Assembly: GCF_006345805.1 (NCBI RefSeq) | Contig: NC_043003.1 | Span: 26,908,001 to 26,972,000, forward strand | From: Octopus sinensis | Taxonomy: Eukaryota | Reading direction: 5' to 3' | Length of the DNA: 64,000 nucleotides | Shown: positions 3,481-63,859 of the stretch, in pieces | Position numbering within the stretch: the first letter of the stretch is position 1 | Layout of the letters: each line of letters opens with the position of its first letter | Made by a program: the position numbers and the translations under genes | The notes under the pieces: generated by a model | What the model was told of the DNA's origin: nothing | What the model saw: the letters and a program-made list of their open reading frames with translations, nothing else | Database searches by the model: none

Positions 3481-4294
3481 AGATACTCTATGTGTTATGT
3501 ATTGAACACTTTCAATTATAGGGACACTGATTAAATCTGACCAGTTTCTAGCGAGTCAACGACGAAGCCTCTGAACTGGTGCTCCATCTGCTAGAAATGC
3601 CAGCTAACTACTCCTCAGACTCATTCTTAGAATCTTAAAAATGAACAAAAAATAATCGTTTAACAGTATAGTTCAAGATTTGTATGAAAAAATTATGGTC
3701 ATGTCTGGGACGGCTGAACAACAATCCATTTTGTTGTTAACGATTAACTCTAACCTAATGATTTTTGGTTTGAAGCAAACTACTCTCTTTAATGAGCAAC
3801 GAGCAAGCAACAGCACTCTGTGGTGACTCGATTTGTTAGAAATAATAGCCATAACAAAACATTCAATAGTTACGAGGAAGTTGTTACGTTTAAATATACA
3901 TTAGCTATTAGACCAGGATGTATAGCTTCAATATAAAATTACGATTTGATAGTAAGTCTGCTCGATTAAACATCGTCTGATATTAAACAGCCAACAACAA
4001 TGGTGTTAGGGTGTCATGAAGCAAAAGAAGTGGTAGATAAATGGCCAATAGCGTTAATGTAGTAACACCATTTTGACTTGTTTTAGTTATTTAGCTGTAT
4101 GCTATTATAATGTCATTAAACATTAAATATTTATGCAAACTTAATGAAATTTATATAAACTTATTGGAAATGATACAAGGTATTAAATTCATTAAGAAAA
4201 TTTATGTAAATTTTATCAAAAAATCAAATTGAGTTATGGAGATGTACTTGCATAGCAAGTGACCTGATCTGAGATCGTGTGCTGGAACGAAAAT

Positions 4295-4626
4295 AATTGC
4301 AGCGGGGAAGGTGTTTATAAGCCATTTAAGAAACACACAAAAACCGTTAGATTCACTTCAACATTTAAATTTAATTTGTCAAAATATTTTCATCGCTTTG
4401 AAACCGCGACCTGCTCAGTGACAAAATTCGGTGCTTAATTTGTCAAAATATTTTCGTCGCTTTGAGATCGCGACCTGTTCACTGACAAAATTCTGTGCTG
4501 CAAAGAATTTTGTCAGTGAACAAAGTGACGAAAATATTTTGACAAATTAAATTTAAATGTTGAAGTGAATCTAACGGTTTTTGTGTGTTTCTTAAATGGC
4601 TTCTCAACACCTTCCGCGCTGCAATT
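4295..4626. mobile_element. Fold-back element with ~100-bp inverted arms (Penelope-like pseudo-LTR candidate)
   Basis: AATTGCAGCG...AAACACACAAAAACCGTTAGATTCACTTCAACATTTAAATTTAATTTGTC is mirrored at 4540-4626 and encloses the hammerhead-like motifs. Confidence 0.6.
4373..4492 (-). ncRNA. Two tandem minimal type-I hammerhead-ribozyme-like motifs
   Basis: Minus strand reads TTTGTCA-GTGAACA-G-GTCGC(loop)GCGAC-GAAA-ATAT-TT-TGACAAA (4492-4437), with a sibling carrying core CTGAGCA (4428-4373). Confidence 0.55.
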
Positions 4627-4873
4627 AAATTGAGTGTTATGTGTAATATAATAAATCAGTGAGTTTAAAACAGAGCAATATATATAGAAAGTCCGTGGTA
4701 GTGTTGCAAACGGACGTCTTTCTGAAAATGTATATGAGTACGGTGATTCTTTTTGCTTGTTAAAATTTTGGTGAGGGTGGTCTCGTGTGAGGCTGCCCAT
4801 TGTTGAATTAATTGTTTGAACTGCTGATTTTAAAAATATTGTTGTTGGCCATTTCAGCAGTTGTGTTGTTGCT

Positions 4874-5786
4874 ATGAGTTTGCCACTTGTAGAGATAGAA
4901 AGTGGTGTCAGCATGGAGTTTGATACTATTCAGAGCTATGCAGCTGCTGCCAGGTCCAGTATAACACAAGAAGAGTCAAAAATGGAAATGGCAACGCTAG
5001 GCCTGAGCAGAATAGAGATGAAAATAGAAGAAATAAAGAAATGCAAGAAAATTATCAAGAAGGAGGGAACAACATATTCCATAGTACCTCCGGAATAAGC
5101 TTTAGAACAAACAAGAAGGAGAACAGTAGTGTATAGATCACAGCTAATTGAAACCAGAAAAATGGAAGTGGTAACAGAAAGAGAAATAGAGGAATGCTTA
5201 AAACCAATACCGGAATACGCAAAATACTAGACGAGAGGAAGAAAGCGAAGAATCAGCGAGAGAATTCTCGACCAGGGTGTTAAAATCGAAATGCGAAAAT
5301 TAGGGTAGGTCCTGTGCCCCCGGAGATTGAAGAAATATGGGTAGTGGCAGCAGTTTTGGCTGCCACTGAAGAGGCAGCACGATTAATAAGCTCAGCCTGA
5401 ACCAAACAGATAAACTAATGGGGATACGGCTTGGAGATTGAACTACATGTATTGAGTAAGGACATAGAAAAAATTCCTTACGGAATAGGATTGCCAGAGG
5501 AAAGGACATTAAAAATTGTAGTAGAAGGAAGAAAACCAAACTGTCACTTATGCGGAAAAAGAGGCCACATGAAAATAGATTGCCCGGATTATTCCAAGCT
5601 GACTGGGAGAAAAAGTGAAATAATAAGTGAACCAGTTGTGGTGCAAACTGCGATTGAGCCAGAGATAAATGAAGAGAGAGAAAACAGTGGACAGCAGCGA
5701 TGGAAGCAACTGTGCAATAAAACCAAAAAGGAGGAAAGAAAATGGAACCAGGCAGATACCAGAATCAAGTGCTCCACATGTTTATA
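4874..5786 (+). mobile_element. Degenerate retroelement gag/ORF1 fragment with CCHC zinc knuckle
   Basis: Broken purine-rich ORFs. CHLCGKRGHMKIDC fits C-X2-C-X4-H-X4-C. Cut off by a Helitron. Confidence 0.65.
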
Positions 5787-6299
5787 TCTATATATATAAA
5801 ACTCTAGTTGTGTGAGTGTCTGTCCCCTTCGATTTAGATTCCTAACTACTCCCACATTTTGCGGTGCAGTTTAACCAAATTCGGGTATCTTATAGTCGTG
5901 ATTCATATCGAGCTCGTCTGAGTATTAGCACGCGTCTACGATGAGTTTACGATTTTAAAAATAATTTAACATCATTTTTTATTCCATTTTAATGCATAAT
6001 TTTTCGTGTGTCGATGGCGGCGGAGTTGGCGTCTAAGGTCACACTTGCACCTGTTTGCTTCTTCCCCTTCTTCCCTCCCTCGTGAAGCTGTGGGGAAGGC
6101 AGTGTAAGGAAATCAACGTCGTAAAGCGTTGTCAAGGAGACCAGTGTTCTTTTAGAACAACGACTTCATGGCTTGAAGACACCAAAACAAAAATGGCTAA
6201 GAAAGCCCGAATTGGCATCTATAAGGGAAGTAACTCTCTAAAAATGCTTATATAGTTATTTCCCTTACAAACCCGAGCAACGCCGGGCGATACTACTAG
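5787..6299 (+). mobile_element. Non-autonomous Helitron
   Basis: A|TC...CTAG|T ends, subterminal hairpin CCCGAGCAACGCCGGG and no TSD. Nearly identical to 56028-56545. Confidence 0.8.
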
Positions 6300-7895: not shown

Positions 7896-8290
7896 TAGAA
7901 ATAGCAGTCAAAAACCGTTTATTCCTATTTACTACAAATATAGCTCCACATATAACATTTACTTGTAACTCACATATGCAAAAAAAAGGAAAAATAACGA
8001 AAACAAACAGTCATCGGTCAGTTGTGGATGCGTTTCTGGGTTAGAATTTTTTTGCATATGTGAGTTACAAGTAAATGTTATATGTGGAGCTATATTTGTA
8101 GTAAATAGGAATAAGCGGTTTTTGACTGCTATTTCTAAATTTTTGGTATGTGGCTAAGCAACTTGTTGCTTAACCCTATTTATATATATATGTATATATA
8201 AAGCGTTCCTACCGATAATGGTTATATTTCCATACCGAAACTACTTGGTAATAATTATTAATTTTTAAAATTAATAATTATTTACCCTTA
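7896..8290. mobile_element. Fold-back element, TAGAAATAGCAGTCAAA family, copy C
   Basis: ~90-bp near-perfect inverted arms (7896-8137) plus a one-sided tail (CTACTTGGT...TTACCCT), with (TA)n on both flanks. Confidence 0.7.
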
Positions 8291-9619: not shown

Positions 9620-10745
9620 AAATCCTTTTTAAGTCAAGTTTTATGGTATCATGGTTAATTCGAATAGGGAGTTCTTGTTGAATGGGTTGTATCCAGGTAT
9701 AGGTGGCTTATCTGGTATTCCTTGAAGAAATTTGTCCAGATTTCATCTAAAGGTGAAGGAATCCTTTCCCTCTTTGATCTATTTCGGAACAATGTTAAAT
9801 AGAGCAGGGCCTGTTGAGGAAAAGAAATTGTGTGGCAGTGATCTTGAAATGGGTAGGGGACATATGCCCCGTGGTCCTAGCCTTGGATGAATTTTAAAGC
9901 TAATGTTGAGGTCATTTGGGCAATGCTGATGGTGTATTCTCCACATCATGCAAATGATGTATCACTCATAGTGGTGCTGGAGAGAATAGAGTTTCAATGC
10001 TTTAAGGTGGTCCCAGTTATCAAGATCACTCATGCCCTTAATTCTTTTAGTGAATGTCTTCTGGGATGTTTCAGTTTTTGAAATGTTTTGTTTTGTATGG
10101 GGAGACCACAGGGGACAGCAGTATTTGAGGTGTGACCATACAAAGGAGGAGAAAGAGGAATGATGATACCTTGTCCTCTGGATCCAAGTGCTCATCCTAT
10201 GAGCTATATCAACCTTATTGTTGATGTGGGCATTTCGGCTGAGATTGTTGTCAACAATTACTCCTAGGTTTCTGATATTATTAGATGCTATGAAAGGTTC
10301 CCCCGAAGGAAGAGAGTATGGCTGTTTTAGCATAGTCCTTCTTCCAAAATGTGTCAGCTCAAATTTTCCCTTGTTCAGTTGCATTTTGTTTTTGTCTGCC
10401 CATTGACTCACAGCTTATAGATCAGACTGGAGTTGAGTTCAGTCTTCTTCTTCACTGATAATTTTCTGGAGCTTGGAGTCAACAGTGAATATTTTCACTT
10501 TGCTGTATTTTATGGTGCTGGAAAGGCCATTTATATAGTCTATAAAGAGAAGGGGTCCCAAGACAGTCCCCTGAGGGACACCACTGATAACTTTTTTCTG
10601 GGCTTGGGTGGATTCCACTGATCGCAACATGTTGTGCTCTGTTCTCCAAGAAATACTCAATCCAGTATAGTTTTCCACAGATTCCAACATTCAACTATTT
10701 TGACAATAGGATATTGTGGTCGACTTGGTTGAACACTTTACTGAA
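9620..10745 (-). mobile_element. CR1/L2-group LINE reverse-transcriptase fragment, frameshifted
   Basis: Motifs SGVPQGTVLGPLLF, QWADKNKMQLNKGK, RNLGVIVDNNL, HLKYCCPLWSP and LKALKLYSLQ. Confidence 0.85.
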
Positions 10746-10983: not shown

Positions 10984-10990
10984 ATATATA

Positions 10991-11452
10991 TACAGTGTAC
11001 ATTTAAACACACAAGAGGCATCTATCAAGTTAAAGAGGATTGTTAAACTCCAAACCACAATTAGGGATAAAATTTCGAAGGGACTGAAAAATAAAAAACT
11101 GGGGCATATACTGGATTGCCTCGTGTATATATATTTAATCTAAAATATACCTGCTAAAGAAGAATTTGTCTAGCAAATTATTTTATTTACTAAAAAAAAG
11201 TCTGAAACCATTGGTCCAAGAGTTAGATGGTAAATGTTTTTATTTTTCATTCCCTTTGAAATTTTATCCCTAGGTTTGGAATTTAACTGTCCTCTCTAGC
11301 ATGCAAGGAATCCTATGATGGATGCCTCTTGTATGTTTAAATGTACACTGTATTTGTATGAATAATATATAGTCTATTGACTAAATTTCTACATGCTAGG
11401 CCACTGGTAATGGAAATTTCAAATATTTCTGATTACCCTTTGATATTATTAA
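10991..11452. mobile_element. Fold-back element with different arms but a similar tail and (TA)n flanks
   Basis: TACAGTGTACATTTAAACA...TGTTTAAATGTACACTGTA are inverted arms (10991-11352). The tail CATGC..CACTGGT..TTACCCT runs into (TA)n. Confidence 0.55.
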
Positions 11453-11651
11453 TTATATATATATATATATAATTTTAAGTCACACTATATGGAGTCAAGT
11501 AATCCAGTAGTACTCATAAAAAAGCTCCTTCATGTGTCATTGTCTAAACCATATAAAATATATTGTGATATACAAGAGAAAAGGATAAGGAGTGTATGTA
11601 GTCAAAAATGACTGAGAAATATTTTAATGAATCTTTATTTAACAATAAAAA

Positions 11652-11947
11652 ATCCAAATATCATGACAAACTTGTTTCATAACTCAAAGAACAGGTAAAT
11701 AACTTATATTATCGTATTTAATAAATAATAAATAAATTACATATCTGCAAAGATACAAAATGTAAAGATTTCTTTCAAAATAATGAAGAGTTTCAGCTAT
11801 GTCATCAGGTGAAATGAATTTTATGTTAAATGTAAATCTTGGCGTAACGAAAGACATGGAAGTAATTTATTTATTATTAAAAATGATAATAAAAGTTATT
11901 TACATGTTTTTTGAGTGATGAAACAAATTTGTCGTGATATTTGGATA
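11652..11947. repeat. Inverted-repeat element
   Basis: ATCCAAATATCATGACAAACTTGTTTCAT... is mirrored by ...ATGAAACAAATTTGTCGTGATATTTGGAT. Confidence 0.55.
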
Positions 11948-12075
11948 TTTGAATCGACCCCAGTTCATATTTTTTAAACCTGGTAGTTATTCCATCATTC
12001 TCTTTTGCTGACCCGCTAAGTTACAGGAACAAACACACCAACATCACTTGTCAAGCATAATGACAACCCATATAG

Positions 12076-12592: not shown

Positions 12593-12771
12593 CACTTTGA
12601 CTCAGCTCCACATGACTTAAAGGATTAGTGGGCGGGTAGGACACGTCCATCTCGTTAGCATGTAGGGCAGGGAACATTTAATTAAACTACCTCCGCCTAC
12701 AAACACCTTGTGATGTAGATGTGTCTTACATGCCCACAAAGCTTTAAATCATGTGGAGCTGAGTCAAAGTG
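12593..12771. repeat. Inverted-repeat element
   Basis: CACTTTGACTCAGCTCCACATGA ... TCATGTGGAGCTGAGTCAAAGTG. Confidence 0.6.
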
Positions 12772-13400
12772 GAATACACACTCCTATATATATATACATA
12801 CATACATTTATATATGTATATAGATACATATATATCTATATCTATCTATCTCTACATCTATATGTGTGTGTGTGTGTATGTGTACACATATGGGGTAGGT
12901 GCAGAAGATTTGCTGGCTCTGGATAGAAGAAAATACAAGAGGATCAGTTAATAATGATTTTGTTCAACATACTCCCCTCTCAGATTCTCACACTTATTGC
13001 AGTGGCCCTTCAGTTTTTCTAAGCCCAGTAAAAGAACTTGGAAGGTTGGGTCTCCAACCAGGTTTTTGCAATGCCCTTAAAGCCAGGAACTTTTCAGCAC
13101 CCCTTTATATGTGTGTGTGTGTGTTAGTATATATGTTCATTTTTTGTCTACGCATCATATATACATATTTTTCAGGGGTGTATATTCTGGATGTGCTAGC
13201 TGTGCACTGCACACCCATTGAATGTGGCAAATTCATTATGAACATTAACCTTACTCATTAATTTAATTACAAGTCTTAATGGAAAATTTTGGTATATTCT
13301 AACTTGAAATTTGGTGGCAATGGGTGTGGCAACACACCCAGTTTAATAACCACTGTACACCACTGATATTTATGTGTGTGTATTAGCATATATCTGTCTA

Positions 13401-13434
<34 letters not shown>

Positions 13435-13591
13435 CAGGGTGGCCCCAAAGTAGGTTTACAGTTATCACATAGGCACTTTAAATTTCTTTTATTACATTTA
13501 AATTTCTTTCTTAAAAACTGAAAAAATTAATTAACCACCTTATACCACTGATATTTATGTGTATTAGCATATATTTTCATATATCTGTCTA

Positions 13592-13627
<36 letters not shown>

Positions 13628-13863
13628 CAGGGTGGCCCCAAAGTAGGTTTACAGTTATCACGTAGGCACTTTAAATTTCTTTTAAAACATTTTAATATAT
13701 TTAAATTTCTTTCTTACAAACTGAAAAGGGAACTCGACAAAATTAACTAAATTAGCATAGAATAATGGTTTCATTTTGTTTTTATAATTAATATCTAAAC
13801 TGTTAATATATGAATGTGAAAGAGATAGTTGAATAACTGTAAACCTACTTTTGGGCCACCCTG
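13628..13863. mobile_element. Tc1/mariner MITE (left end duplicated at ~13436)
   Basis: TIRs CAGGGTGGCCCCAAAGTAGGTTTACAGTTAT / ATAACTGTAAACCTACTTTTGGGCCACCCTG with TA on both sides. Confidence 0.8.
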
Positions 13864-14362
13864 TATATATATATATATGGAAGAATCCTGCCATATATAC
13901 GGATGTATATAAAAATGTTTTATTTTTCACTTGTTTCAGTCAATGGATTGAAGTTGTGTTGGAGAAATGCCTTGAAGGCTTCAGTCAAACTAATTTAGCC
14001 CCAGTACTAAGCCTGGTACTTATTCTATTGATCTCTATTACTGAGCTACTAAGTTATGGGGATGTAAACAAATCAACATGGTTCCAGGTTCAGTCCCTCA
14101 GCATGACACATATGGCTTTGGCCAGCCTGAGGCTATCGTAGAAGACACCTGTTCAAGGTGCCACACAGTGGAACTGAACCTAGAACCATGCAGTTGGGAA
14201 GCAAGCTTCTTACCACACTTCCACAATCCCCTTCAAAAAATTCAGCATACAGTTTCATGTAGAAAATCTTTTGGTCTAATATTTACCTAGGTGGTCAAAC
14301 TTTACTGTGAAAAATGAACAGAATTCTTGTAAATATTCAAGATTTACAGCTTAGCTGATTTT

Positions 14363-15324: not shown

Positions 15325-15672
15325 TACTAAGTAATTAAGGGTTTAGCAACGATTTGCCTCACCACACACCGAATTTAGAAATAGCAGTCAAAGAGTTATG
15401 GCTATTCTTTCTACTTAAAAGAGAGATCTCAGTAAAACCACAGCACTTAAAAGTGTGGTTTTACTGAGATCTCTCTTTCAAGTAGAAAGAATAGCCATAA
15501 CTCTTTGACTTCTATTTCTAAATTCGGTGTGTGGTGAGGCAAATCGTTGCTAAACCCTTAATTACTTAGTATTACTTAAACCTTCCTTGAATGGGGCTTT
15601 TACATGCCGATATCTACTTGGTGAAATTAATGATTACTCCAAATTAATTGATTTCACCCTATATTATTATTG
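15325..15672. mobile_element. Fold-back element, same family, copy A
   Basis: 247-bp near-perfect palindrome (15325-15571) plus a ~100-bp tail, with (TA)n flanks. Confidence 0.75.
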
Positions 15673-17019
15673 TATATATATATATATATATATACATACA
15701 TATATATCATCATCATCACTGTTTAACATCCATTTTCCATGCATGCATGGAAAAATGGACGTTAAAATGATGGCGATGATGTGTACATGCATAAGTAGAC
15801 AATTCACAGGAAACATCAGTGGGGAAGCCGGTAAGAATTGAAAAGGAAAGGGTCTAAGTAGAAGCAAAGTACCATAAAGTTTCCAATTTTTTAAAACTTA
15901 TTCAGTGTGTGGTGAATAAAGAAATATCATATGAAAGCTTACTCCATCTTGTCTTCTCATTAACCCACGTGTTCTTATATTTCAGTTGAAACACACTGCC
16001 TTTGTTTCTATTGAAAATTATGAAGAATTTACGGAAGTAACTATCATTGTTGACCCTTTTGATAGCAACCCGGCTGAAGCTGCCTCTGGCTCTGTAGTAA
16101 CAAATGTCTTGTTTTTCATAAGTTTTGAATTAATATCTTCCACCAAACCTTAGTAACAATTTATGTTCCTAACACTAGCTTACTGATAACTAAATTATTT
16201 TATTAAATTCCTTGTTACATTTAAAATTAATTGAAAGAAACACAGAGCATCTCAAAATAATATTATAACAAAAGGGTTAAGCTAGTGTTTGAGATATAAA
16301 TGAGCATAAACTATGATAAAAAATTTTAATTTAGATAATTTTAAAACATATCATAGAGCCAGGTACAGTTTCAGGCAAGTTGATATCAGAAGGGTTGAGC
16401 AAATATTTCAGAGTGGATGTGTGTGCCTTCGTATATTCAGTTTGTTAACCATTGATCTATGTTTTTCTCTCACCTCCACTAAAAGAGGTGTGATTTGCGG
16501 AAAATTTGGCTGTTATTTCTTTGCAGTTCAAGCAATCACATAGATACTACTTTCTCATTGTTTAACCCTGGGTCAGGTCAGAGATAATCAAGTGAAAACA
16601 ATTCAGCCTTGACTAGCTCTCTTTAATTTGAAATTAATGTAACTAGTCCTACATTATGTGTTCTCATGTTTTTAAGACAGTAGGGTATGAGTTGAAGGAA
16701 ATTTAACCCTTAAAACAAACCCCAGCACAAAAAAAACCTGATTGTATGTCATATCTTTCTCATATTCTTTTCATCGTAGTTCATATATCTATAGATTTTT
16801 AATAACATAATAGGTTAGATAGGATGGTGCCTATAGTACAATAACCAATAGTAGTGTGCATGTATAGTAAATATTACGATCGTGAAATTGGCATTAGCTG
16901 ATCTCACTCTTTCTCAGGGAACCCTTAGGAACCTTTTGCAGAACCCTGGTTGAGAAACGCTACCCTAAGGGCTCTGTCAAACCATAATGCTGATGATGAT
17001 CTTTTTTGTTATAGGCATA

Positions 17020-19250: not shown

Positions 19251-20066
19251 ATTATTTTTTTAAATGTTAAATTGACAGTATATAATTGTAATAATAATAA
19301 TTATTATCATTATTATTATGATGATCAATATGAACAAATAACACATTACTGAATGTCTTTGAGAAATTAGTGTGTTTCGTCGTTAATAAAAGAATTTGTA
19401 AAACAATATATATTCAGAGTTTGTTCTTGGTGAATTGATGAATCCAACACACTATGGGGTTTTGTATGTAATTGTCTGAATTTGAGAAATATAACAGTGA
19501 GGTGGTAATGGTGATCGTTTTTTCATGGGGTGGAGAAGGGCTATACGTTGTAAAAAAAAAAAAAAAAAAAAATTTTGAATTTAAAAAAGAGAAAGAGAAA
19601 AAAAAGTGGTTTTTCTAGCCATTAATACTCCACAGTACAATATATTTCTGTAAAAAGTTTATTTCTTTAAAAATTTTCCAATTTTAATTGTTCTCCTTTT
19701 TTTTTATGGTGTGTGTAAAAATGTTTTTTTAAACAGTAAAAAAAAAAAGTAGTTGCAAAAATGAGGGGAAAATAATAAATCTTTCACACTCCAATCACAA
19801 AGCTCATGTCAGCACCAGAGGTTTCGCGGCACAGTATTTGGTGCAGCAAGACAGTGGGTTTTATCTAGCCCCACTCTTCGAAGGGTTTGAATGACCCTGT
19901 CCTGTGCAAGCAAACTACCACATGCCTGGCCCGTTTCACAAGGGTGACGAACACAAGAAGAGGCGAGGAAAGAGCGTGTTTTCAGCCATGCCCCGCTTCT
20001 GTCACTATTGTCGTCTCCAAAATCCTTCACGGTGTGCATGGTAGAACAAAATTCTAAACCGTCGGT

Positions 20067-20254
20067 TCATTTGTTCTTGGGTTCATGGCGTTTCATGTGC
20101 AGCGCCAAGTGATCAGAACGTGCAAAGCATCGCTCGCAGACTTTGCACTTGAATGGCTTGGCACCGGTGTGTTTTCGTATGTGCCTGGTGAGTTCGTCGG
20201 AGCGAGCAAAGCGCCACTGGCAGGAAGGAAACGTACAAAGATAAGGTTTTTCTC
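20067..20254 (-). CDS. KLF5: KLF5-like transcription factor, last coding exon (zinc fingers 2-3)
   Basis: Acceptor tttcag|GAGAAAAA. Translates [61 protein letters not shown], with TGA at 20069-20067. Confidence 0.96.
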
Positions 20255-21074
20255 CTGAAAATAAAGAAGAAAACGAGATATAAGTAAAAATTCAATCAGT
20301 TTTAATGAGAGAGAAATTAGCAAAATCAGAAAATGGCAAATACAAAAATGCCTAACCCTACCCAACTCTAATCTGTATTTTAATCAAACAGAATTATTCT
20401 CAGTGGGAACCTAGTAGGGAAAAAGGGCAGCAAAAACCAGTTAACCCACTAATAATAAACCCATATAAAAACAGGGTTAGAATTTTAGCTGAGCAGGGTT
20501 AACCCTTTTAATCCCAAATGAAGCATGGCAGAGTAGTCTTCAAGAAGTAGACAGACCTATGATCAAAGATGTTCCAGCCATGACTACACCATCCAATGTA
20601 TCTTTCTCTACCCCTACTTGTTTTTTTTTAAGAGGACAGAGTGAGGGCTGAGATTTTGGTTGCTACTTTTAACAGGTGGTAGCAGTATTTTCCTCTGTCA
20701 TTCTATCTCAGAGAAATGTTATGTAATCCTATTTAACATTTGCTATGGTATATATGTATATAAAAATAAATTTGCTTTTTTTTTTAATGTATTTTAACTC
20801 AGTAGATATACCAGTTTGTCAGTTTGACTCTTGCAGCTAGTGTCACAGATAAATTTTCATGACAAGACACTACACAATTGTACATGGTAGCTTGCCAAAC
20901 AACTATTCATTTCAAGTTGAATTTAAACTAAAATGAGAGTTGTTATATATGTACACGTGTGCATACACACATATACACATTTATATATATGGCTAGTCTT
21001 TATGTCAAGCTATCTATGTTATCCCCTGGCCATTTCACTATGAATAATAATAATAATAATAAATCGATACATAC

Positions 21075-21134
21075 CTGTATGGATTCGCTGATGAGCCTTC
21101 AGGTGAGAGCTTTTCGTGTACGCTTTACGGCAAT
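21075..21134 (-). CDS. KLF5: KLF5-like transcription factor, 60-nt exon 3 (zinc finger 1: [21 protein letters not shown])
   Basis: tttttcag|ATTGCCGT...CATACAG|gtatgt, phase 1/1. It encodes the KLF ZF1 motif [10 protein letters not shown] and is missed by the ORF track. Confidence 0.95.
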
Positions 21135-21819
21135 CTGAAAAAGTGAGAGAGATAAGTTATTAGATAAGTTATAACCAAGAAATGTTACAAACACAATAAT
21201 AATAATGGTTTTAAATCTTGACACAACGACAATAATTTGGAGGTGGGGGTGGGGGAGGTAGATTACATCAGTTCCAGTGTTGAACTGGTACTTATTTTAT
21301 CAACTCTGAAAGGATGAAAGGCAAAAGTCAGCCTTGGTGGAATTTGAAGTCAGAATGTAAATGCCAGAAATGCCCCCAAAGCATTTTGTCCAGAGTGCAA
21401 ACAATTCTGCCAGTTTGTCACCTTAATGATAATTATTATCAATACACCTGTAGGTGGTCGAGAGATACTTGCTGGAAATATCAACATAATCTCACTCAAA
21501 TCACATTCTTCTAATTAACTACCATAATTTTTACATCGGAGAATAAAATATTACATTGTAACTGCTTGTGTTTGTGACACCAACATATTATCAGTCGATT
21601 AATTAGACTGTGTTAAACTAGGTGCCCTCCTGCTCCACCAGACAGGTAGATATTTTATTCTGGAGGAGTTTGAAAGTGTAAAGCTAGCAGATTATTTGTT
21701 AAGGAAAAATGTCAATGAATGTTACTGTTCATAGTCATTAGCTTGTAAACCATTCTCACACACAGATTTGCTCATTCATATATCATGGATATTAGAGTAT
21801 TAAGATAAGAGGTACTTAC

Positions 21820-23068
21820 TTTGAAAATCACAGAAATGAACTCGTCTTTTCTCCAACTCAGGGTTGTTTTTTCTGTTGTACTTTATGGTTGAGCATCCAG
21901 GATGTGTCACAGGTTGTTTTTTATTTACTGTCCTCACAGGGGGAACTGACAGTACGGGGTTCATAAAGTGACGCGGGTTGCCTGGATATGGCGGCGGTGG
22001 TGTGCGTCGGAATGAGCCTTCCTGGACGGGGCTGGCGGGCAGTGAATTGGGTGGGGTTGGAAACAGGGGGCCACCCGTCGATGAGGAAGAGGAGGAGTTG
22101 GATAGAGCCGATGAGGAAGGTGATGAGGAATTTGGTGAGTGCAAGAAAGAGAGATTCTGGTGGTGGGGATGAGCAGGAAGTTGTGTGGCGTAGCCCATCG
22201 ACATAAGAGATGATTGAAGTTTTCCCACTTTAGTCCGGTGATGCCCGCCGGCCTCATTTATGTTCGGCTTCGATTCTATAGCACATGCTGTCCGAACCGG
22301 CTCAAATTTACAAGCAGTAAGCATGTTAACACCATTGTTGCTAAGGTTGCTATTGCTGGTATTGTTAATAACGTTGTTCTGGTTGTTACCGGTATTGTTG
22401 AGCAAAATCGATGAGGTGTACTGACAGGCGGGCTTGTCCCAGTCAGTATCAATAGGTTCACTCTTGATACGATTAGTTAATCCGGCCATAGTGTCCTGAG
22501 AAGTGTCTTGAGAAGTGACCATGTGCATTCCCAGACGTATGTCGTCCCACAAGGCCTTGCAGTTCTCCTGGTTCAAATCCAGCTCTTGCTGGTCAATCGA
22601 ATTTATGTAATCAACATTGGTCATACCCCCTATAGAATCGATGTCAAAGTTTTCTGGTTCCAATTTGATATTTGATGAGTACTCGTCCCAGTCCAGCTCT
22701 TTACGACCGTCCTCTATTGACGGCAAGTGACCGTTGCTGCCCATATTGCTACCACCATTGTTGGTGATAGCCTGATGCACCAACTGGGTCTTTAAACCGT
22801 TCATATTGACTGAATTCATCACCATTAACCTGTTACCACGGTGAAGCTCTACGCCATTCTGGTTGGCCATGTTATTGTAAACACTGTTACAGTTCATTAA
22901 ACCAATACGAAGGTTGTTTGAGTTACTGTATAAGAGGCCACCTTTTAGTTCACCATCATCGTTGAAGAATTCACCCACTACTGATGCGCTGTCACGACGT
23001 TGGCGCTTCCTGAAGGCTGGTGAGCTCTGTGTTGGTGACACCAAGTATTGTTCTAAATCCGGTTCCAC
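21820..23068 (-). CDS. KLF5: KLF5-like transcription factor, coding exon 2 (transactivation region to start of zinc finger 1)
   Basis: Acceptor ttgttgcag|GTGGAA and donor CAAA|gtaagt bound a 1249-nt open frame. It contains DLEQYL, IKSEP/IKLEP, PTPPNS, TPPPPY and the KLF5 hallmark KYNRKNNPELEKRRVHFC. Confidence 0.95.
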
Positions 23069-26000
23069 CTGCAACAACAAAAAAAATAAAAAATTAATTA
23101 TAATGATGATGACAATGATAATAATAATAATAATTTCAGATATTGGGACAAAGCTAATCGTTTTAAGGTAAAGGATCAAGTCTATTGCATCGACCCCCCA
23201 CAAGCATTTGATGATTATGATGGGCACTTATTTTATCGTCCCTCTGAAAAGATGAACGACAAAGTTGAACTCGACTTATGCCTTATTTTATTGATCCCGA
23301 AAAGTGACAGGCAAAGTATATGCGGGGGGGGGGGGGGAAGAGACAAAGGATTTGAACACAGAATGAATAGAGACAAAACAGAACACCGCAAGGCCAAAAT
23401 GTAACTTTGTAACTATGTTTTCCCTTCTCAAATGTTTTCACGGTCCTATTAAATGAAGATAGAAATCTGACTGCTATTTCTAATAGCCTGAATAACCACG
23501 TACAGGATTTATCATCTGATCACATTAGATATTCTGTTTCATATACAGAGGCTTCAATGTGTGTGTGTATGTGTGTGTGTGTGTGCGTGAGAGAGAGGAA
23601 GAGGTCGGCCTGCGAGTTGAGCAATTAGCGTGTGTATTTGAAGTTACCGTAAGATGTAAAAAAGTTATAGTTTGGTAAAGGGTTACTTATTTGCACACAC
23701 ACACATACACACACTCACGCATGCGTGTGTGCGTAGACCTTATACGTGTGTGTTTGTGTGTGTGTGACAAATCCGGAAACGGTTATTCTTTTTGAAACCC
23801 ACCGCTCCTTGACGAGAGAAAAAAGGTGTGTTTTTATGTAACTAGACACACGCACACACACTGTAACACACATACACACCCACACGTTCCTACTTATTAT
23901 TCTCTCGATAAGAAAAAATAAATAAAAAATTTCTAGGTGTGTACAAATGTAGTTGAAGTCGGGTATGTATAATATGTACAATAGTTGCGTGGGTAAGTAA
24001 TATGTAATGTATGTATAATTCAAACGTTGGTTCACGTGAACTGAACAGCAAACACGTGTGTGTGTATGTGTGTGAGACACGCAGTGTATGTATGTATAAT
24101 ATGGCCGTCCGTATTTGCTTTATCGTTTTTATGTGTTTGATAGTATATGTAATTTGAGGGTGGAAAAAGGCGCGCGCCTGTACACACGCATGTGTGTGTG
24201 TTTAGTCATTTAAATATTAGTAGTAAAATATGTGGGGGAAAAGGCGATGTTTAAAAAGATTTAAAAAAAGTGTGATGGTGCCATATATATATATGATATA
24301 TATGTAGGTACTTCAATGGAGTTAAAGGGGGAAAAAAAAAATCACCCAAACGGGTCAATGGTCTTATTGGAGACATTTAACGCGCACAAAAAAAAAAAAA
24401 AAAAAAAAAAAATTCGTTACTTGAAGTCTGCCTTTTAGTTGGAGAGAGAGAGAAAACAATATTAATTGATAGCGATTCTCTAAAAGCAAAGCTGATATAA
24501 TTTCTTGACATTCAGGATTGGAAATCAAGTAGTTTTTTCCCCCCTCAAAGCTACACACACAAGGAGAGAAAATTAAAGAGAAAAAAAAAAAAAAAAAGTG
24601 TAAAGTTTGTGGAAAGTTAAATTAAAAATTTTTCCAGTCAAAGCTTTATACAAAAATTTCCTTCCATATTATAAAGTAATATTTTTAATGATTAATTAAT
24701 ATTACACTTCAAGATTATAAGGCGCGCGTACACACCCACATTAGTAGAATATTAAACTGACTGCACTTAAAACTAGCCTTTAGGAATTTCATGCGAAATA
24801 TTCAAAGTTAGCTCCTTCTATAATCCAATGAAACTATGCTGCGTAGGGAAAACGTTAACAAAATTATTTTTGAAAAAAAAAAAAAAAAAAATTTTTTTTT
24901 AAAGTATGGATATGAACGCTAAAGAGTTAACCGCCTCCCTTGCAAGTGTGTGTGTGTTTCGTTCGAAAGATCACATCGTCGTTTTTCCGATAAGTAGACA
25001 AGAAAGTATGAAAGCGAGAAACTTTAAAATGTATATCTGGAAAATTTCATTGTATGTATGTATATGAAAAAGTTATGAGGAAACAAAATCGGTCGGGAGA
25101 TATACAATCCTTTAGTTATGTCACACACACCGCTATATAAATGGGGAGGGGAATTCACACAAATTGATGTAAAAAAAAAAAAAAATATACAACTACTAAT
25201 AAAAGGAAATTATTTGAAATAATAAAAAAATTAAGAGATTGCAAACAGAAATAATTCAGTTTTGAATCTAATAAAACGACAAAAAAAAGAAATCCTTCGT
25301 CTTTCTTGTGAGATCAAAAAGGCGTAAAATTTAAATAATATAGAAAAAATAAATATATCTACCACGAGAATTCGAACACACCACCGCAGTATCAAACCCT
25401 CAAATGGATGAAACTCCTAATAAGTCAGCCGTAACAGCAATAGCTGTTGCGCAATGCTCTGTCCAGTCAGTGCTCGATCAAGCAGGCACTCGAGTGTATT
25501 GCATGTACATGAGTGTGTGTGTGTGTGAGTGAGTGAGTGTAACTGCCGTGTGGTTGGTGTCAGTCTTTTTAAAATAAACAATGGGACAATTCATAACACG
25601 CACAAACACTTAGCTACTGCTTTGCTTCCGTACTGGAGCCGACCAGTTGAAAATTGCTTTACACAAACTGCGTGCTTAACGTATGTATGTATGCACAAAT
25701 AAAAGCTTATACACTTATAAAATCTCTCTCTCTCTCTCTCTTTCACACACACACACACACACGCGCGTATTATGTGTTCATACATACATGTATATTTCCA
25801 TTTTACAGCGTGGTTTCTACGACTGGATGCCCTTCTTAACAACAACTACTATGAATAGACATGAATTTATACATGCAGTTCTATCTTCTCACTGGAGGCT
25901 GTTTCAAACCCGAAAACGATGAAAGGGTGACGACACTGCACCGCCCCTTACAACAGTCTTATTTTCTATAATAAACACCCACCCAAACCAGACGTTAATC

Positions 26001-27904: not shown

Positions 27905-30900
27905 TCTATTTCTATCTTGGGTTGTTTAGCGAAGTCAGCGTTGATCGAACAGAGCTATGATTTAAGGCATTCCAGCCGGGACCATCCAGTCTTCGGGGAG
28001 GGAGAGTTTATCTAGGACTACACCGTGTAATGTGTTTATCCCGTTTTCAAGATAACAGGGCATAAGAATGAGGGATATTTGGCTGTTATATCTAACAAGT
28101 TCGAAAGATTTCCCGCGAAGCGATGATTTATTACAAACCACTAAGTAACGTCTTGCGCAATCACGTCCCGTAACTCCAAATATAAAAATACCCCCGTAGA
28201 ATTTTGACTGACGCTCTAACAACTCTGCTAATATCTAGATGAACTTGAAAAATCACACTTGCCCCCCACTGCAGTTTTCTACCGCCTACAAGCGTCTTTG
28301 TAAATGGTACCATTGCCACTTTACAAGTTAAAAATTTAAGCAGTAAGTTGTAATTAAAGAGGTGTCGGTAGGTAGGTAGGCAGACCGGTAAACGCATTCT
28401 TTCTGTGTGTGTGTGTACATGGCTATGCTTAAGTATAGCCATGTACACACACACATTTTTTAAAAAAACTTTATACGTAAGACACATACACATTTCTTCA
28501 TACAACACATCCACAGAGACACAACATACGCAAATATATATTTGCACATTTATGTAAAAACAAGTCAGCCGATATACACTCAGCTAATACAGCCATCCAT
28601 TCACGTAATATACCGGTGTAATTTTCCACACTGAAAACTCGTCCGGCTCACTTAAGTAGTTTTCCATTCAGTAAGAAGAGACGGTATGTATGTATGTATG
28701 TATGTGTGTGTGTGTGTAAAAGGAAAGAAGAAAGGTAGCTTTCTTTTTCTTCTTTTTCAATGACAGAATGATTCATCTATCTTATTCTCCGTGTTCTTCC
28801 TTTCAGAACCCCACGCAACCGTTAGTGCAACATCACAACACACTTTTTTGGCAGCAGTTACAAAGCGGCTCAAAAATGAAAGTTTCGTGCAAGGCACTTA
28901 ATATCATGCACACACACAAATAAACGGGTATGTGTATATGCGCGTGTGTGGTACAGAAAGGAAGTGATAATGATGAAATTAAATCCGACGTGGTTGTGAT
29001 GATATAAGCACAACGTGATGATGAAATAAGCATGACGTAGTGATAAAGCACACTATTTCTGATTTTCGTTTCGCCGGCTTCTAACACACAAACACCCACA
29101 CACAAGCAATACTCTTTTCGATCTCTTCATAATCGATTAAGCTGGGTATAGACAAACAATATTTTAGTTGCAAAGAGCGGAGTTACGGCCAACTCAATTT
29201 CGCACTATTCCAGTTTGGTCGGAGTAGAAAAAATATTTACATGTAATAAATCGAAGAGTAAAAATCTATTTTATTTCAATAAATTCTGGACACTTTTCTT
29301 TCGTTTTACGAGTTACTTCAGCTCCAGGTTAATAAAGAACGTGTATGTGAGAGTGTACACATTATGTATGAGTGTAAAGGAAAAGTACTCCATCTATACA
29401 TGTTAAGTGAGTGTATATGTGTGTATACGAGTGTTCCGGGTAGCGGGGTCTCGTGGGTGCTTTAGGAAATATCTTATTTAAACTATCAAACAGTGGGGGT
29501 GGAAATTAGTCAACCAACCTCAATTCAAAGCCGACGGAATGGCTGGAGGTGATGTGTCGTCATCAGAATAAGAACCAACCGTTTTGGCGATTGAGGGAAA
29601 CAAAGAAAAGGAAGAAAAAAAAAAGAAAGAAAGAAAGAAAAGAGTAAGACAAGAGTGCAAGAGAGAGGAGGCAAGAGATGTAGTCTTTGAAAGGAAGAAC
29701 GATTTACCAGCCGTATCTATTTCCGATAGTTAACAGTCCCAATATCTGCACTTCCTTTTATTTATTATATTTTTTATCATTAAATATACATATGTACCTA
29801 TCGCTCCATCTCCAGTTACCACCACCACCACTGTATCATGAGCCAAACTCTCCATCTCCAAGCTGCCGGAGTGCTAGAAATAATAGCCAAATCTCACATC
29901 ATAAGCTACCGAACTGGGTTAAAAAAAACCTAGAAGATCCTTAGATTACGGAGATCGAATCTATAAAATGGGACGGTTATAATGAGGTAACATCATTGAT
30001 TATAGCTGTCCTGGGATTATACAACGAACTAATCCATCTACCTGTCTTATCTATCTATCAACAAAAATCTTACTATTTAACATATCTAATCTTACACTTT
30101 TTCACAAATCCCGGCTCCATACTAGTTACCTCTCCCCTATATACAAACATCCGTCTTCAGGAGTGCGCAGCTAGCTTGATTACAAGATATGCTAATACTT
30201 ATAACCGGATACTTGTGACGTCATAGTTCAATTGATACAGATATTGGGGGTTATTAACCGTGGACGTTTGCTGCATGAGAACTCGATAGTAGAGTGTTTG
30301 ATAAACATTTTGTTTAATTGAAACTGCATCCTTGTTAATGAAAGCAATTAATATGCAAATAAATAATTCTGGATAAAAATTAGAGGGGAGACAATCCCAA
30401 ATATATATATTATATAAGCCAGATAGATAGATAGATATGAGTCAACAACTCGTCATAACGTAGCTGTTATTCATGATGAGTCATACCCGTTTGAACATAG
30501 ATATCACAGTATCGAATGACACTCAGGTGACAAGTATCAACGTCCTGGCGCCAAAACTTTTTGTGATACACGCAGAAACAATACTTAATATATGTGAGGT
30601 GTATGAATGGGGATCAGGTTCTACCTCTCAGGATGGTCAAGACGAGAGATCTACATATGACTTAAACCCCGGCTCAGTTAAAATAATATATAGCAGAGCC
30701 ACAATCAAAGAAGTTTCAATGAAAACTATCTTGTTTTCTTATTTTAAAATTCAGATATAATGTATCTAGATATACATTATTCGACGTATTCATTTTTAAA
30801 GCCGGCAGGTTGTGATTTGAGGAAGATTCGACTGTTACTTCAAGTAGACCGGTTTGTGCGGTCTACGTATATGAGTGAAGAAATACCGCAAGGTATTCGC

Positions 30901-58224: not shown

Positions 58225-58264
58225 CAAATTATATATTATATATATATATAATATATATATTGGT

Positions 58265-58618
58265 TATCCGTAATAATGAAGGGTGAAATTAATTAATTTG
58301 GAAAAATTATCAATTACACCAAGTAGTTCTTCGGCATGTAAAAACCTCATTCGAGGAAAATTTAAGTAATACTAAGCAATAAGGGTTTAGCAACGAGTTG
58401 CCTTACCACATACCGAATTTAGAAATAGCAGTCAAAGGGTTATAGCTATTTCTTCTACTAAAAAGGGAGATCTCAGTAAAAACAGCAGTAAATCTCAGTA
58501 AAAAAATGCTGTTTTTACTGAGATCTCCTTTTTAGTAGAAGAAATAGCTATAACCCTTTGACTGCTATTTCTAAATTCGGTATGTGTAAGGCAACTCGTT
58601 GCTAACCCTTATTGCTTA

Positions 58619-58621
<3 letters not shown>
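58265..58621. mobile_element. Fold-back element, same family, copy B (opposite orientation to A)
   Basis: The palindrome at 58370-58621 is homologous to 15325-15571, and the tail at 58265-58369 is the reverse complement of copy A's tail. Flanked by (TA)n. Confidence 0.75.
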
Positions 58622-59759: not shown

Positions 59760-60909
59760 ACTCTGTATAATCTTAGTTTCAGAAAATAATATTAGCACAC
59801 CCTCAGCTTACTCAAGAAGTGAAGAGGTATGCTGTTATTGTGGTTATAAAGGCTGAGCATAGTGATTTAGAAATATCTCGATTTTTAAAAGTTGCCAGAT
59901 CTTTCGTCTACAAAGTTTGTAAGGAGTTAGAGGCTCAAGATGGAAACATATCACCAGTATCAAAGCATAAAAAGCATTCTAAACGCTCTGAAATCATCAG
60001 AACATTTGAATTTATCCAGCAAGTTCAACAGACCATTGATTACAATCCCAGAAAGTCCATGAGGTTAATTGCAAAAGATCTCCATGTGTGAGAAGAAACA
60101 GTCAGAAATGTTGTCCACGAAGGCATTAGATATGATGAGGAAAGGTCAGATCTAAAAGGCTCTTAAACAAACTGAAAAATCCAGCGGAAAATTTGATTTG
60201 GTTTTTCTCAAACAAGAAAAACTTCGACCAAGATCAAAAAGTTAACAGAAGAAATGAAAGATGGTTATGTGCAGACCGTTTTGAAGTTTCAAATGTTACG
60301 CATACAAATTTTCCTGCAACCGTCATGGTTTTAGGGGCTGTCAGCAATGAAGGGCATGTGATGTCTCCTCACTTCTTCCACAAGGCCTTAGAGTTAACTC
60401 TGTCGCCTACATGGAGGTCCTGGAAATAATTGTCAAGCCCTGGATAGACAGTAAATGCGATAGAAGGTCATATGTGTTTCAGTAAGACACTGCGCTATCA
60501 TACATTGCTCTAGTAATACAGGAATGGATGGCTGAAAATTTTCATGATCACATAACCCCTAATATTTGGCCTCCTAATTCCCCAGATCTCAATCTATTGG
60601 ACTATTACATGAGGGGCGTTGTTGAGAGAGAAGTCAATGAACACGCCCATAACACCAAAGATTCTTTGAAAGCTGCCATAGTCAGAATAGTGTACAAAAT
60701 GAACCAGGACGTCTTGATTCGAGCATGTAGATGATCTCATGTAGAAGCAGTTGTTGAAGCTGAAGGTGGCTTTATTGAATAACATTATAGAAAAGAAGAT
60801 TTATTTTTATCCTCATAGCATTTTTTGATAAATAAAGTTAGTATCTGTTATTATATATCTGTTTTTTTTTTATAAACATAATCTGTCCTCAAATATCTTA
60901 CGCACCCTG
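59760..60909 (+). mobile_element. Tc1/mariner (probably DD37D/maT) transposase pseudogene
   Basis: HTH-like N-terminus plus WFFSNKKNF, VMVLGAVSNEG and WPPNSPDLNLLDYY. Right TIR TGTCCTCAAATATCTTACGCACCCTG followed by TA. Confidence 0.85.
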
Positions 60910-62404: not shown

Positions 62405-63465
62405 AAAATGCACCGGAGTTTTTAGTCATCTATCAAGTCACAACAAGAATCTCAGACAGATAATACTTTCCTTAAGATGTGTACGGTGCCCATTAAGGCT
62501 GCTTTTTGCAAGACATCAATCTTGCATGGGATTTCCAGTTGCCTTACGAAGTCTTGAAATTCCAATGGGATTGAGCCCAGCGCTCTGATCACCACTGGTA
62601 TCACTTCTACATTACCCTCTCGTATTCCTTACAGTCTTGCCATTTCCACTTTCAATTCGGAGAACTTGGTGATTTTTTCAACCTCTTTTCTCACAACATT
62701 CATGTCATTTGGTATGGCTACATCAATCATCTGAGGGTATTTGTCTCTCTTAAGGCGGCGAGCTGGCAGAAACGTTAGCACGCCGGGCGAAATGCGAAGC
62801 CGTATTTCGTCTGCCGTTGCGTTCTGAGTTCAAATTCCGCCGAGGTCGACTTTGCCTTTCATCCTTTCGGGGTCGATTAAATAAGTACCAGTTACGCACC
62901 GGGGTCGAAATAATCGACTTAATCCGTTTGTCTGTCCTTGTTTGTCCCTTCTATGTTTAGCCCCTTGTGGGTAGTAAAGAAATAGGTATTTGTCCCTCTT
63001 ATTCAATATGACAATATCCGGTTGATAGTGTACGATTACACGATCCGTTTGAAAATCATAATCTCAGAGTATTGTTACTTTTCCATCCTCCTGCATAACT
63101 TTACTTGGTACATGCTCATACCAGTTCTCTGTTACTTCATATTGGTATTTACGGCATAAGAGCCAATGAAGATACACACACGCTTTATCGTGACGGCGTT
63201 GGTATTCTTTTTGTGCAAGGCTCACACATTCACTTACCAAGTGGGTCACATTGTCCACGCTCTTTCCACAGAGTCTACATTTCTGGGTGTCAGAAGTTTT
63301 ATAGATGTTATACTTCACTGAATTGGTAGCGAGAGCCTGGTCTTGTGCAGCAATGATCAGACGTTCGGTGGTACGCTTCAAATAACCTCGCTCAAGCCAT
63401 GCCCACGATGCTGAATTATCCTTAACGTCTTGTCTGTTCCTTTCAAACTGTCTATGCATTTTCAT
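62405..63465 (-). mobile_element. Restriction-endonuclease-type (R4/NeSL-like) non-LTR retrotransposon 3' fragment, interrupted by a SINE
   Basis: IAAQDQALAT, CRLCG..THLVSEC..RRHD (CCHC/RHD), then PDIVI...IDVAIP...EKITK (PD-D/ExK nuclease) and VIPVVI.ALG. Confidence 0.85.
62752..62984 (+). mobile_element. Full-length tRNA-derived SINE with Nin/Deu-like central domain
   Basis: A-box-like GAGCTGGCAGAAACG, B-box GAGTTCAAATTCC, core GCCTTTCATCCTTTCGGGGTCGAT..AAGTACCAG and a 16-bp TSD GGTATTTGTC(T/C)CTCTT. Confidence 0.85.
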
Positions 63466-63859
63466 TACTATTATTATTATTATTATTATTATTAATAATA
63501 TTTTTATTAAGGGTGTGAGCTGGTAGAAGCGTTAGCATACGCTTTACATGCTTTCGGGGTCGATGAAGTAAGTACCAGTTGAACATTGGGGTCGATGTAA
63601 TCGACTCTACTGCTCCTCCAAAAATTCGGGTCTTGTGCCTATAACAGAAAGGACTATTATTTTTGTTGTTGTTTTGTTGTTGTTATCAAAGCTGCGAACT
63701 AACAGAATCTTTAGTGCGTCGAACAAAATACTCAGCAGCATTACTTCGAGACTCTATACGTTCTTGGTTAGTTGGTTAGTTTGTCCTGTTCTTACATCAT
63801 ATAGAAAATTTGGGGTCCAGTCGGTTAGGCGACCCAAATACGTAATTTATTCCCCTCGA

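Follow-up and report, generated by a model that had tools for sequence, protein, structure and literature searches.

Tailed fold-back insertions in (TA)n of an Octopus sinensis locus: a likely variant of the Penelope-like fold-back architecture

Penelope-like elements (PLEs) are the closest described systems to the insertions considered here. In the available portion of PMC8557442, PLEs are described with an adjacent inverted 5'-truncated copy and a one-sided tail of 30-40 bp, and the origin of the inverted repeats and tails is given as undefined. The same text describes the Naiads, which target (TA)n and are without a canonical hammerhead, half cores being noted. As far as the excerpts of the respective papers go, self-priming has been proposed for PLEs from palindromic junctions (PMC3846280), and with a purified PLE in vitro both strands are nicked and extended, with two RNA start sites that bound the tail (PMC11167929). 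In the O. vulgaris assembly, PLEs amount to 6.83% and comprise 190 families, according to the part of PMC13282606 at hand.

The fold-backs reported here are a real feature and likely a variant of this published architecture. They are small, the whole insertion measuring only ~350-400 nt, and consist of a hairpin with a tail on one side. Copies A and B lie in reverse orientation to each other within the window, that is, the whole stretch of 64,000 nt of Octopus sinensis DNA that was analysed. A third and more distant family member, copy C (7896-8289), has arms unlike those of A and B and was missed by the first-pass annotation. The parts of the three copies are as follows:

7896 to 7986, minus strand: outer arm of copy C, beginning at a different TA, ~45 nt inward of the start in A and B
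7987 to 8046, no strand: loop of copy C, ~60 nt, a putative junction
8047 to 8137, plus strand: tail-side arm of copy C, which aligns only loosely with A and B in its inner part
8138 to 8289, plus strand: one-sided extension of copy C, ~150 nt, with a terminal stem-loop and a half hammerhead-like motif
15325 to 15442, minus strand: outer arm of copy A, an inverted copy of the unit, starting at a fixed internal site beside (TA)n
15443 to 15453, no strand: putative junction of copy A, delimited by the arm ends and by loose contig ends at 15454
15454 to 15571, plus strand: tail-side arm of copy A, with a small stem-loop at 15534-15556
15572 to 15672, plus strand: one-sided tail of copy A, 101 nt, with a stem-loop at 15620-15658, ACCC, 13 nt and then (TA)n
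~58260 to 58369, minus strand: one-sided tail of copy B, with a terminal stem-loop
58370 to 58487, minus strand: tail-side arm of copy B
58488 to 58506, no strand: junction of copy B, its overrun judged against loose ends of run X1 at 15459
58507 to 58621, plus strand: outer arm of copy B, ending at (TA)n

The hairpin of copy A is 247 nt long (15325-15571), with 116 of 118 arm columns complementary, and (TA)n flanks the insertion on both sides. The arms of the copy B hairpin (58370-58621) show no mismatches and three single-base gaps, each in a homopolymer run of the outer arm, and the 91-nt arms of copy C show one mismatch in 91 columns. Coordinates and flanks bear out the earlier description of A and B as hairpins with a one-sided ~100-nt tail in (TA)n, and the three motif pairs quoted for them at that time are all found in the sequence. 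The stretch 8121-8289 of copy C is 72% identical to copy B, and the extension of copy C carries a GAA-stem III-GUA half hammerhead-like motif.

Each end of insertion A is preceded, at 12-13 nt, by a stem-loop that ends in ACCC, and within the tail-side arm of A ACCC stands 12 nt ahead of the TA where the outer arm starts. In copy B, the outer end lies 11 nt after a stem-loop and ACCC, and the tail end lies somewhat further. Against shuffled sequences, the terminal stem-loop stands above the shuffles in A (z -3.8) and C (z -5.3) and not in B (z -1.5), and none of the internal stem-loops of A, B and C does so (z -0.2 to -0.9; -0.3 for 15534-15556 of copy A).

Contigs of other sequencing runs also contain the family. 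Part of copy A is present in 20 of the 24 listed runs (four coded organisms), and four of the 24 were compared with one arm plus the tail (15440-15675), which gave 1269, 1069, 699 and 34 contigs, contig depth not being taken as copy number. The family is abundant across contigs of three coded organisms. None of the runs that contain the family is recorded as RNA; one of them, X4, is guessed to be RNA, and this gives no evidence of expression. The outer end is fixed, with at least 19 contigs of run X3 entering (AT)n at 15572, and a variant end at 15542, ~13 nt past an ACCC-like motif, is found in at least 13, 17 and 17 contigs. Unfolded unit sequence extends beyond both folds, in at least seven X1 contigs at 15459 and in at least three X7 and at least four X3 contigs at 15454. 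The continuation letters at these two positions differ from the junctions of A and B, and those of X1 and X7 are alike by eye, with a median loose length of only 9-11 letters and long continuations that may rest on one contig each. In one X4 contig, opposite strands are joined at 15481/15589, and arm and tail are bridged by single contigs (e.g., records 12 and 18).

Comparison of copies A and B over arm columns 1-113 shows 11 differences, of which 10 are substitutions and one is an indel. All 11 differences are mirrored in the other arm of the same copy, where the first-pass annotation had claimed six or more. No difference is common to the same-side arms of A and B, and the two arms of A disagree at just two sites, those of B at three. 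Under independent divergence of the arms, the chance of such coincidence would be 5e-11 to 1e-9, two count sets having been computed. Five other fold-backs in the window have arm mismatches of 5/107, 10/109, 8/89, 7/58 and 12/80 (5-15%), which is a loose control as their spacers are longer and they may be older.

Six of the ten mirrored substitutions are common family alleles, at 11-91% of depth in the large runs X1, X3 and X7; the common-allele positions among the mirrored substitutions of B are 15488, 15489, 15496, 15529, 15536 and 15564. The other four are absent from the variant lists, two of them (15502 and 15543) in well-covered places, and the mirrored C at 15502 and C at 15543 of copy B do not appear among the listed variants (3% or more) of any of the four runs, with the reservation that a variant absent from a listing is not necessarily rare, since contigs drop rare variants. 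The two arm-private changes of copy A lack a mirror, and at one of them, 15511, its letter is in the minority in all three large runs. Because six of the ten mirrored substitutions are common alleles, the source lineages of A and B differ, and their co-variation mostly predates both insertions. It is thus largely subfamily history, and by itself it is no proof of a new palindrome at each insertion. Rapid intra-hairpin conversion in place, the other cause put forward at first, is disfavoured because the two private changes of A are unmirrored.

The arm ends of A and B, four in all, are confined to ~11 nt, and the junctions of A, B and C differ from one another. At the junction of A, the outer arm appears to run ~11 nt past the start of the other arm into the unfolded unit and to turn at a CTT-AA-AAG mini-hairpin (3 bp with a 2-nt loop), 3 nt perhaps being lost on return by slippage. 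At the junction of B, the outer arm would overrun by 3 nt; there are 16 nt of filler, including a templated 12-nt copy of neighbouring arm sequence, and this filler may represent an aborted first round of self-priming. Wherever the case is informative (A, B and the X4 contig, three of three), the tail-side arm stops short of the point in the unit to which the outer arm extends. Such a polarity is predicted if the outer arm primes itself, and the junctions of A and B can both be read in this way.

The simplest account, which we favour with modest confidence, is that of a PLE-type insertion in which cDNA starts twice and the outer arm primes itself; we infer the enzyme, the RNA and the following order of steps. 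A PLE enzyme would nick (TA)n, and cDNA would start at two fixed places of the RNA, one internal (giving the outer arm) and one at the tail end, each 12-13 nt past a stem-loop that ends in ACCC. The outer-arm cDNA would stop early, fold back on a few complementary bases and copy itself, so that the alleles of a single template would appear in both arms. Next, the cDNA begun at the tail end would pair with the strand made by self-copying, and the tail would therefore stand on one side only. The hairpin was thus likely built during insertion and not inherited. The clustering of the folds within ~11 nt counts against this model, as random truncation would rarely give it. A more far-reaching proposal, which we regard as possible but doubtful, is that the source is a non-coding RNA, SINE-like and dependent on PLEs, in which two start modules resemble each other (each a stem-loop, ACCC and ~12 nt). 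Its insertions would nearly always take the form of a self-primed perfect hairpin, and would be very numerous and spread over several octopus-like species.

Palindromic sources could alternatively have been inherited and copied whole, with their arms occasionally homogenised in the source lineages by intra-hairpin conversion and their centre reshaped when a hairpin or cruciform was cleaved and the ends were joined. Such an origin would agree with the folding of A and B within ~11 nt, with the fixed outer end and with the six mirrored substitutions that are common alleles. The same three observations temper the first-pass claim that the palindrome is made anew at each insertion, of which there still stands that the junctions differ and can be read as fold-back products. 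The templated filler of B also fits end joining, of which such filler is typical as well. We nevertheless consider an inherited palindrome unlikely, as unfolded sequence continues past both folds, the outer arm exceeds the tail-side arm in length in three of three informative junctions, the private arm changes of A are unmirrored and copy C folds elsewhere. An asymmetric inverted repeat would also be expected of a non-autonomous Helentron (HINE/DINE-1-like), a rolling-circle element whose single-stranded intermediate would prime itself, and the stem-loop 12-13 nt from the far end is inside the 8-35 bp given for HINEs in the available part of PMC4067079. The subTIRs described there, however, are 12-15 bp in length at a distance of 38-60 bp from the 3' end, in elements inserted at T-rich/TT sites. 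With a repeat of 91-118 bp that stops 100-150 nt short of the end, and with (TA)n flanks, the present family is decidedly improbable as a Helentron.

That the insertions are not symmetric MITEs had been stated from the start, and for A, B and C this is upheld. If A and B were symmetric TIR MITEs from two subfamilies, each with a TA target duplication and lying beside an unrelated tail, it would be understandable that TA begins both hairpin ends, and tail-less copies may exist, given a summed arm depth of ~3-6 times the tail depth in the three large runs (a poor measure). Yet a homologous tail is joined directly to one arm in all three window copies, contigs bridge arm and tail, and the junctions differ, so that we give this explanation very little credence. 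Inverted repeats do not occupy both termini, since in each of the three copies the insertion extends 100-150 nt past the repeat on one side, and the TA flanks of A, B and C sit inside (TA)n and are hence uninformative on target-site duplication. It is scarcely credible that assembly or polishing equalised the arms or made the fold-backs: the three arm gaps of B are one-arm homopolymer deletions, typical of long-read error, and a 100-N gap lies inside the window, but the contig sets of three coded organisms, which are independent, again show the outer end as fixed and contain the shared alleles, copy A retains two arm mismatches and the junctions are family-derived.

On balance, the insertions are likely short non-coding PLE insertions, made of an inverted 5'-truncated copy and a tail and probably built at insertion. 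Their membership in PLEs is provisional, and the architecture itself has already been published for PLEs. A head-to-head inverted 5'-truncated copy (with presumed RNA polarity), a one-sided tail and a (TA)n insertion bias are found in all three copies, the last also in loose ends that run into (TA)n. The tails, of 101 nt (A), ~110 nt (B) and ~150 nt (C), exceed the 30-40 described for PLEs about threefold. Pattern parsing found no full hammerhead in A, B or C and a half core in C only; Rfam gave no hammerhead in the three scanned regions, only structure-driven miRNA-type matches below the gathering score for copy A and no relevant match for the tails of B and C. No direct partial tandem (pLTR) was found in the three copies. 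Stop codons interrupt the six-frame readings of all three units, and a 28-codon frame in the tail of B is not conserved in A. Beside the copies there was no RT or GIY-YIG ORF, the 85 frames of the window gave no PLE-type Pfam match and no parent was found.

Sixteen short words gave no relevant match to the published Naiad, Chlamys and Hydra consensi, and one 20-nt family motif had no match in viral contigs; its three matches in metagenome contigs span only 20-22 nt and were dismissed as chance. The accessible parts of PMC8967140, PMC8969392 and a bioRxiv retrozyme preprint (10.64898/2026.07.22.740005) hold nothing specific to the family, and the accessible supplement of PMC13282606 holds none of three family motifs. 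No description of the family was found in the literature searched, and it may already be catalogued in the repeat library behind that paper, in Repbase or in Dfam.

The surroundings of the copies are varied. A KLF-type three-zinc-finger gene lies on the minus strand at 20063-23227 (exons near 21800-23227, ~21060-21140 and 20063-20240), and copy A sits ~4.4 kb past its stop codon. The window is AT-rich, microsatellite-rich animal DNA, and its interspersed repeats presumably resemble octopus SINEs. A U2 snRNA-like copy at 2819-2990 (73 bits, above the Rfam gathering score) is probably a pseudogene. Decayed transposon coding fragments (9965-10690, 59777-60731, 63067-63531 and 5419-5796) match RT (weak RVT_1), DDE_3, zf-RVT and zinc-knuckle domains, all below Pfam cut-offs, and a small 50-nt near-perfect palindrome at 28406-28455 has no second copy in the window. 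Four symmetric MITE-like fold-backs with 9-15% arm mismatch lie at 10984-11359, 11648-11950, 12593-12771 and 13625-13866, the last within a local ~200-nt duplication with 13343-13524; 10984-11359 and 13625-13866 we assume, by their TA-CAG ends, to be Tc1/mariner-type MITEs.

Besides a partial tandem and an inversion, an unrelated fold-back at 4294-4627 carries on the minus strand a minimal type-I hammerhead-like motif with stems I and II of 7 and 5 bp and a palindromic stem III; one copy has a G3-C8 swapped core. The traits of the minimal motif are those in the available part of PMC4209133. A candidate one-sided tail of ~55 nt lies beside it at 4238-4293, and 4238-4627 is likely a PLE pLTR insertion. 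Given the tandem, the inversion and the hammerhead-like fold, PLE-style fold-backs likely occur in this genome.

The family is of moderate interest in that it could make the fold-back mechanism of PLEs countable. Insertions of ~350 nt that show both start sites and the junction would allow self-priming, twin priming and conversion to be separated by counting, and their copies are easily mis-annotated as MITEs. If transcribed, they would give near-perfect dsRNA in the octopus lineage, which is known for heavy A-to-I editing. If the SINE-like, PLE-dependent proposal were true, each copy would be a record of one fold-back event and the data set would decide the origin of PLE inverted repeats, and perfect duplexes of ~120 bp would be seeded in the transcriptome for ADAR and small-RNA pathways.

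Among known systems, the presumed Tc1/mariner-type MITEs in (TA)n of this window (10984-11359 and 13625-13866) share the fold-back shape and the TA flanks with the family and, unlike it, have symmetric ends, no visible tail and arms with 9-15% mismatch. HINE/DINE-1 elements, as given in the accessible part of PMC4067079, resemble it in the asymmetric inverted repeat, the 3' stem-loop, the non-coding nature and the high copy number, and differ in the length of the repeat, in its distance from the end and in the target site. The Naiad/Hydra clade PLEs of Octopus, in the available portion of PMC8557442, share the (TA)n targeting, and Naiads, too, are without a canonical hammerhead, whereas the 3' ends of Naiad_Obim and Naiad_Ovul and the hammerhead row of Hydra-1_Obim are, by eye, unlike the family tail. 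From PLEs with an inverted pLTR and a tail, namely Penelope/Poseidon, Neptune and the Adineta vaga Pen families (PMC3846280 and PMC11167929, both in excerpt), the family differs in being without an ORF and a hammerhead, in its tail of 100-150 instead of 30-40 nt and in its total of ~350-400 nt. With these same PLEs it shares the head-to-head inverted truncated copy, the one-sided tail, two fixed outer ends, the junction palindrome and an AT-rich target.
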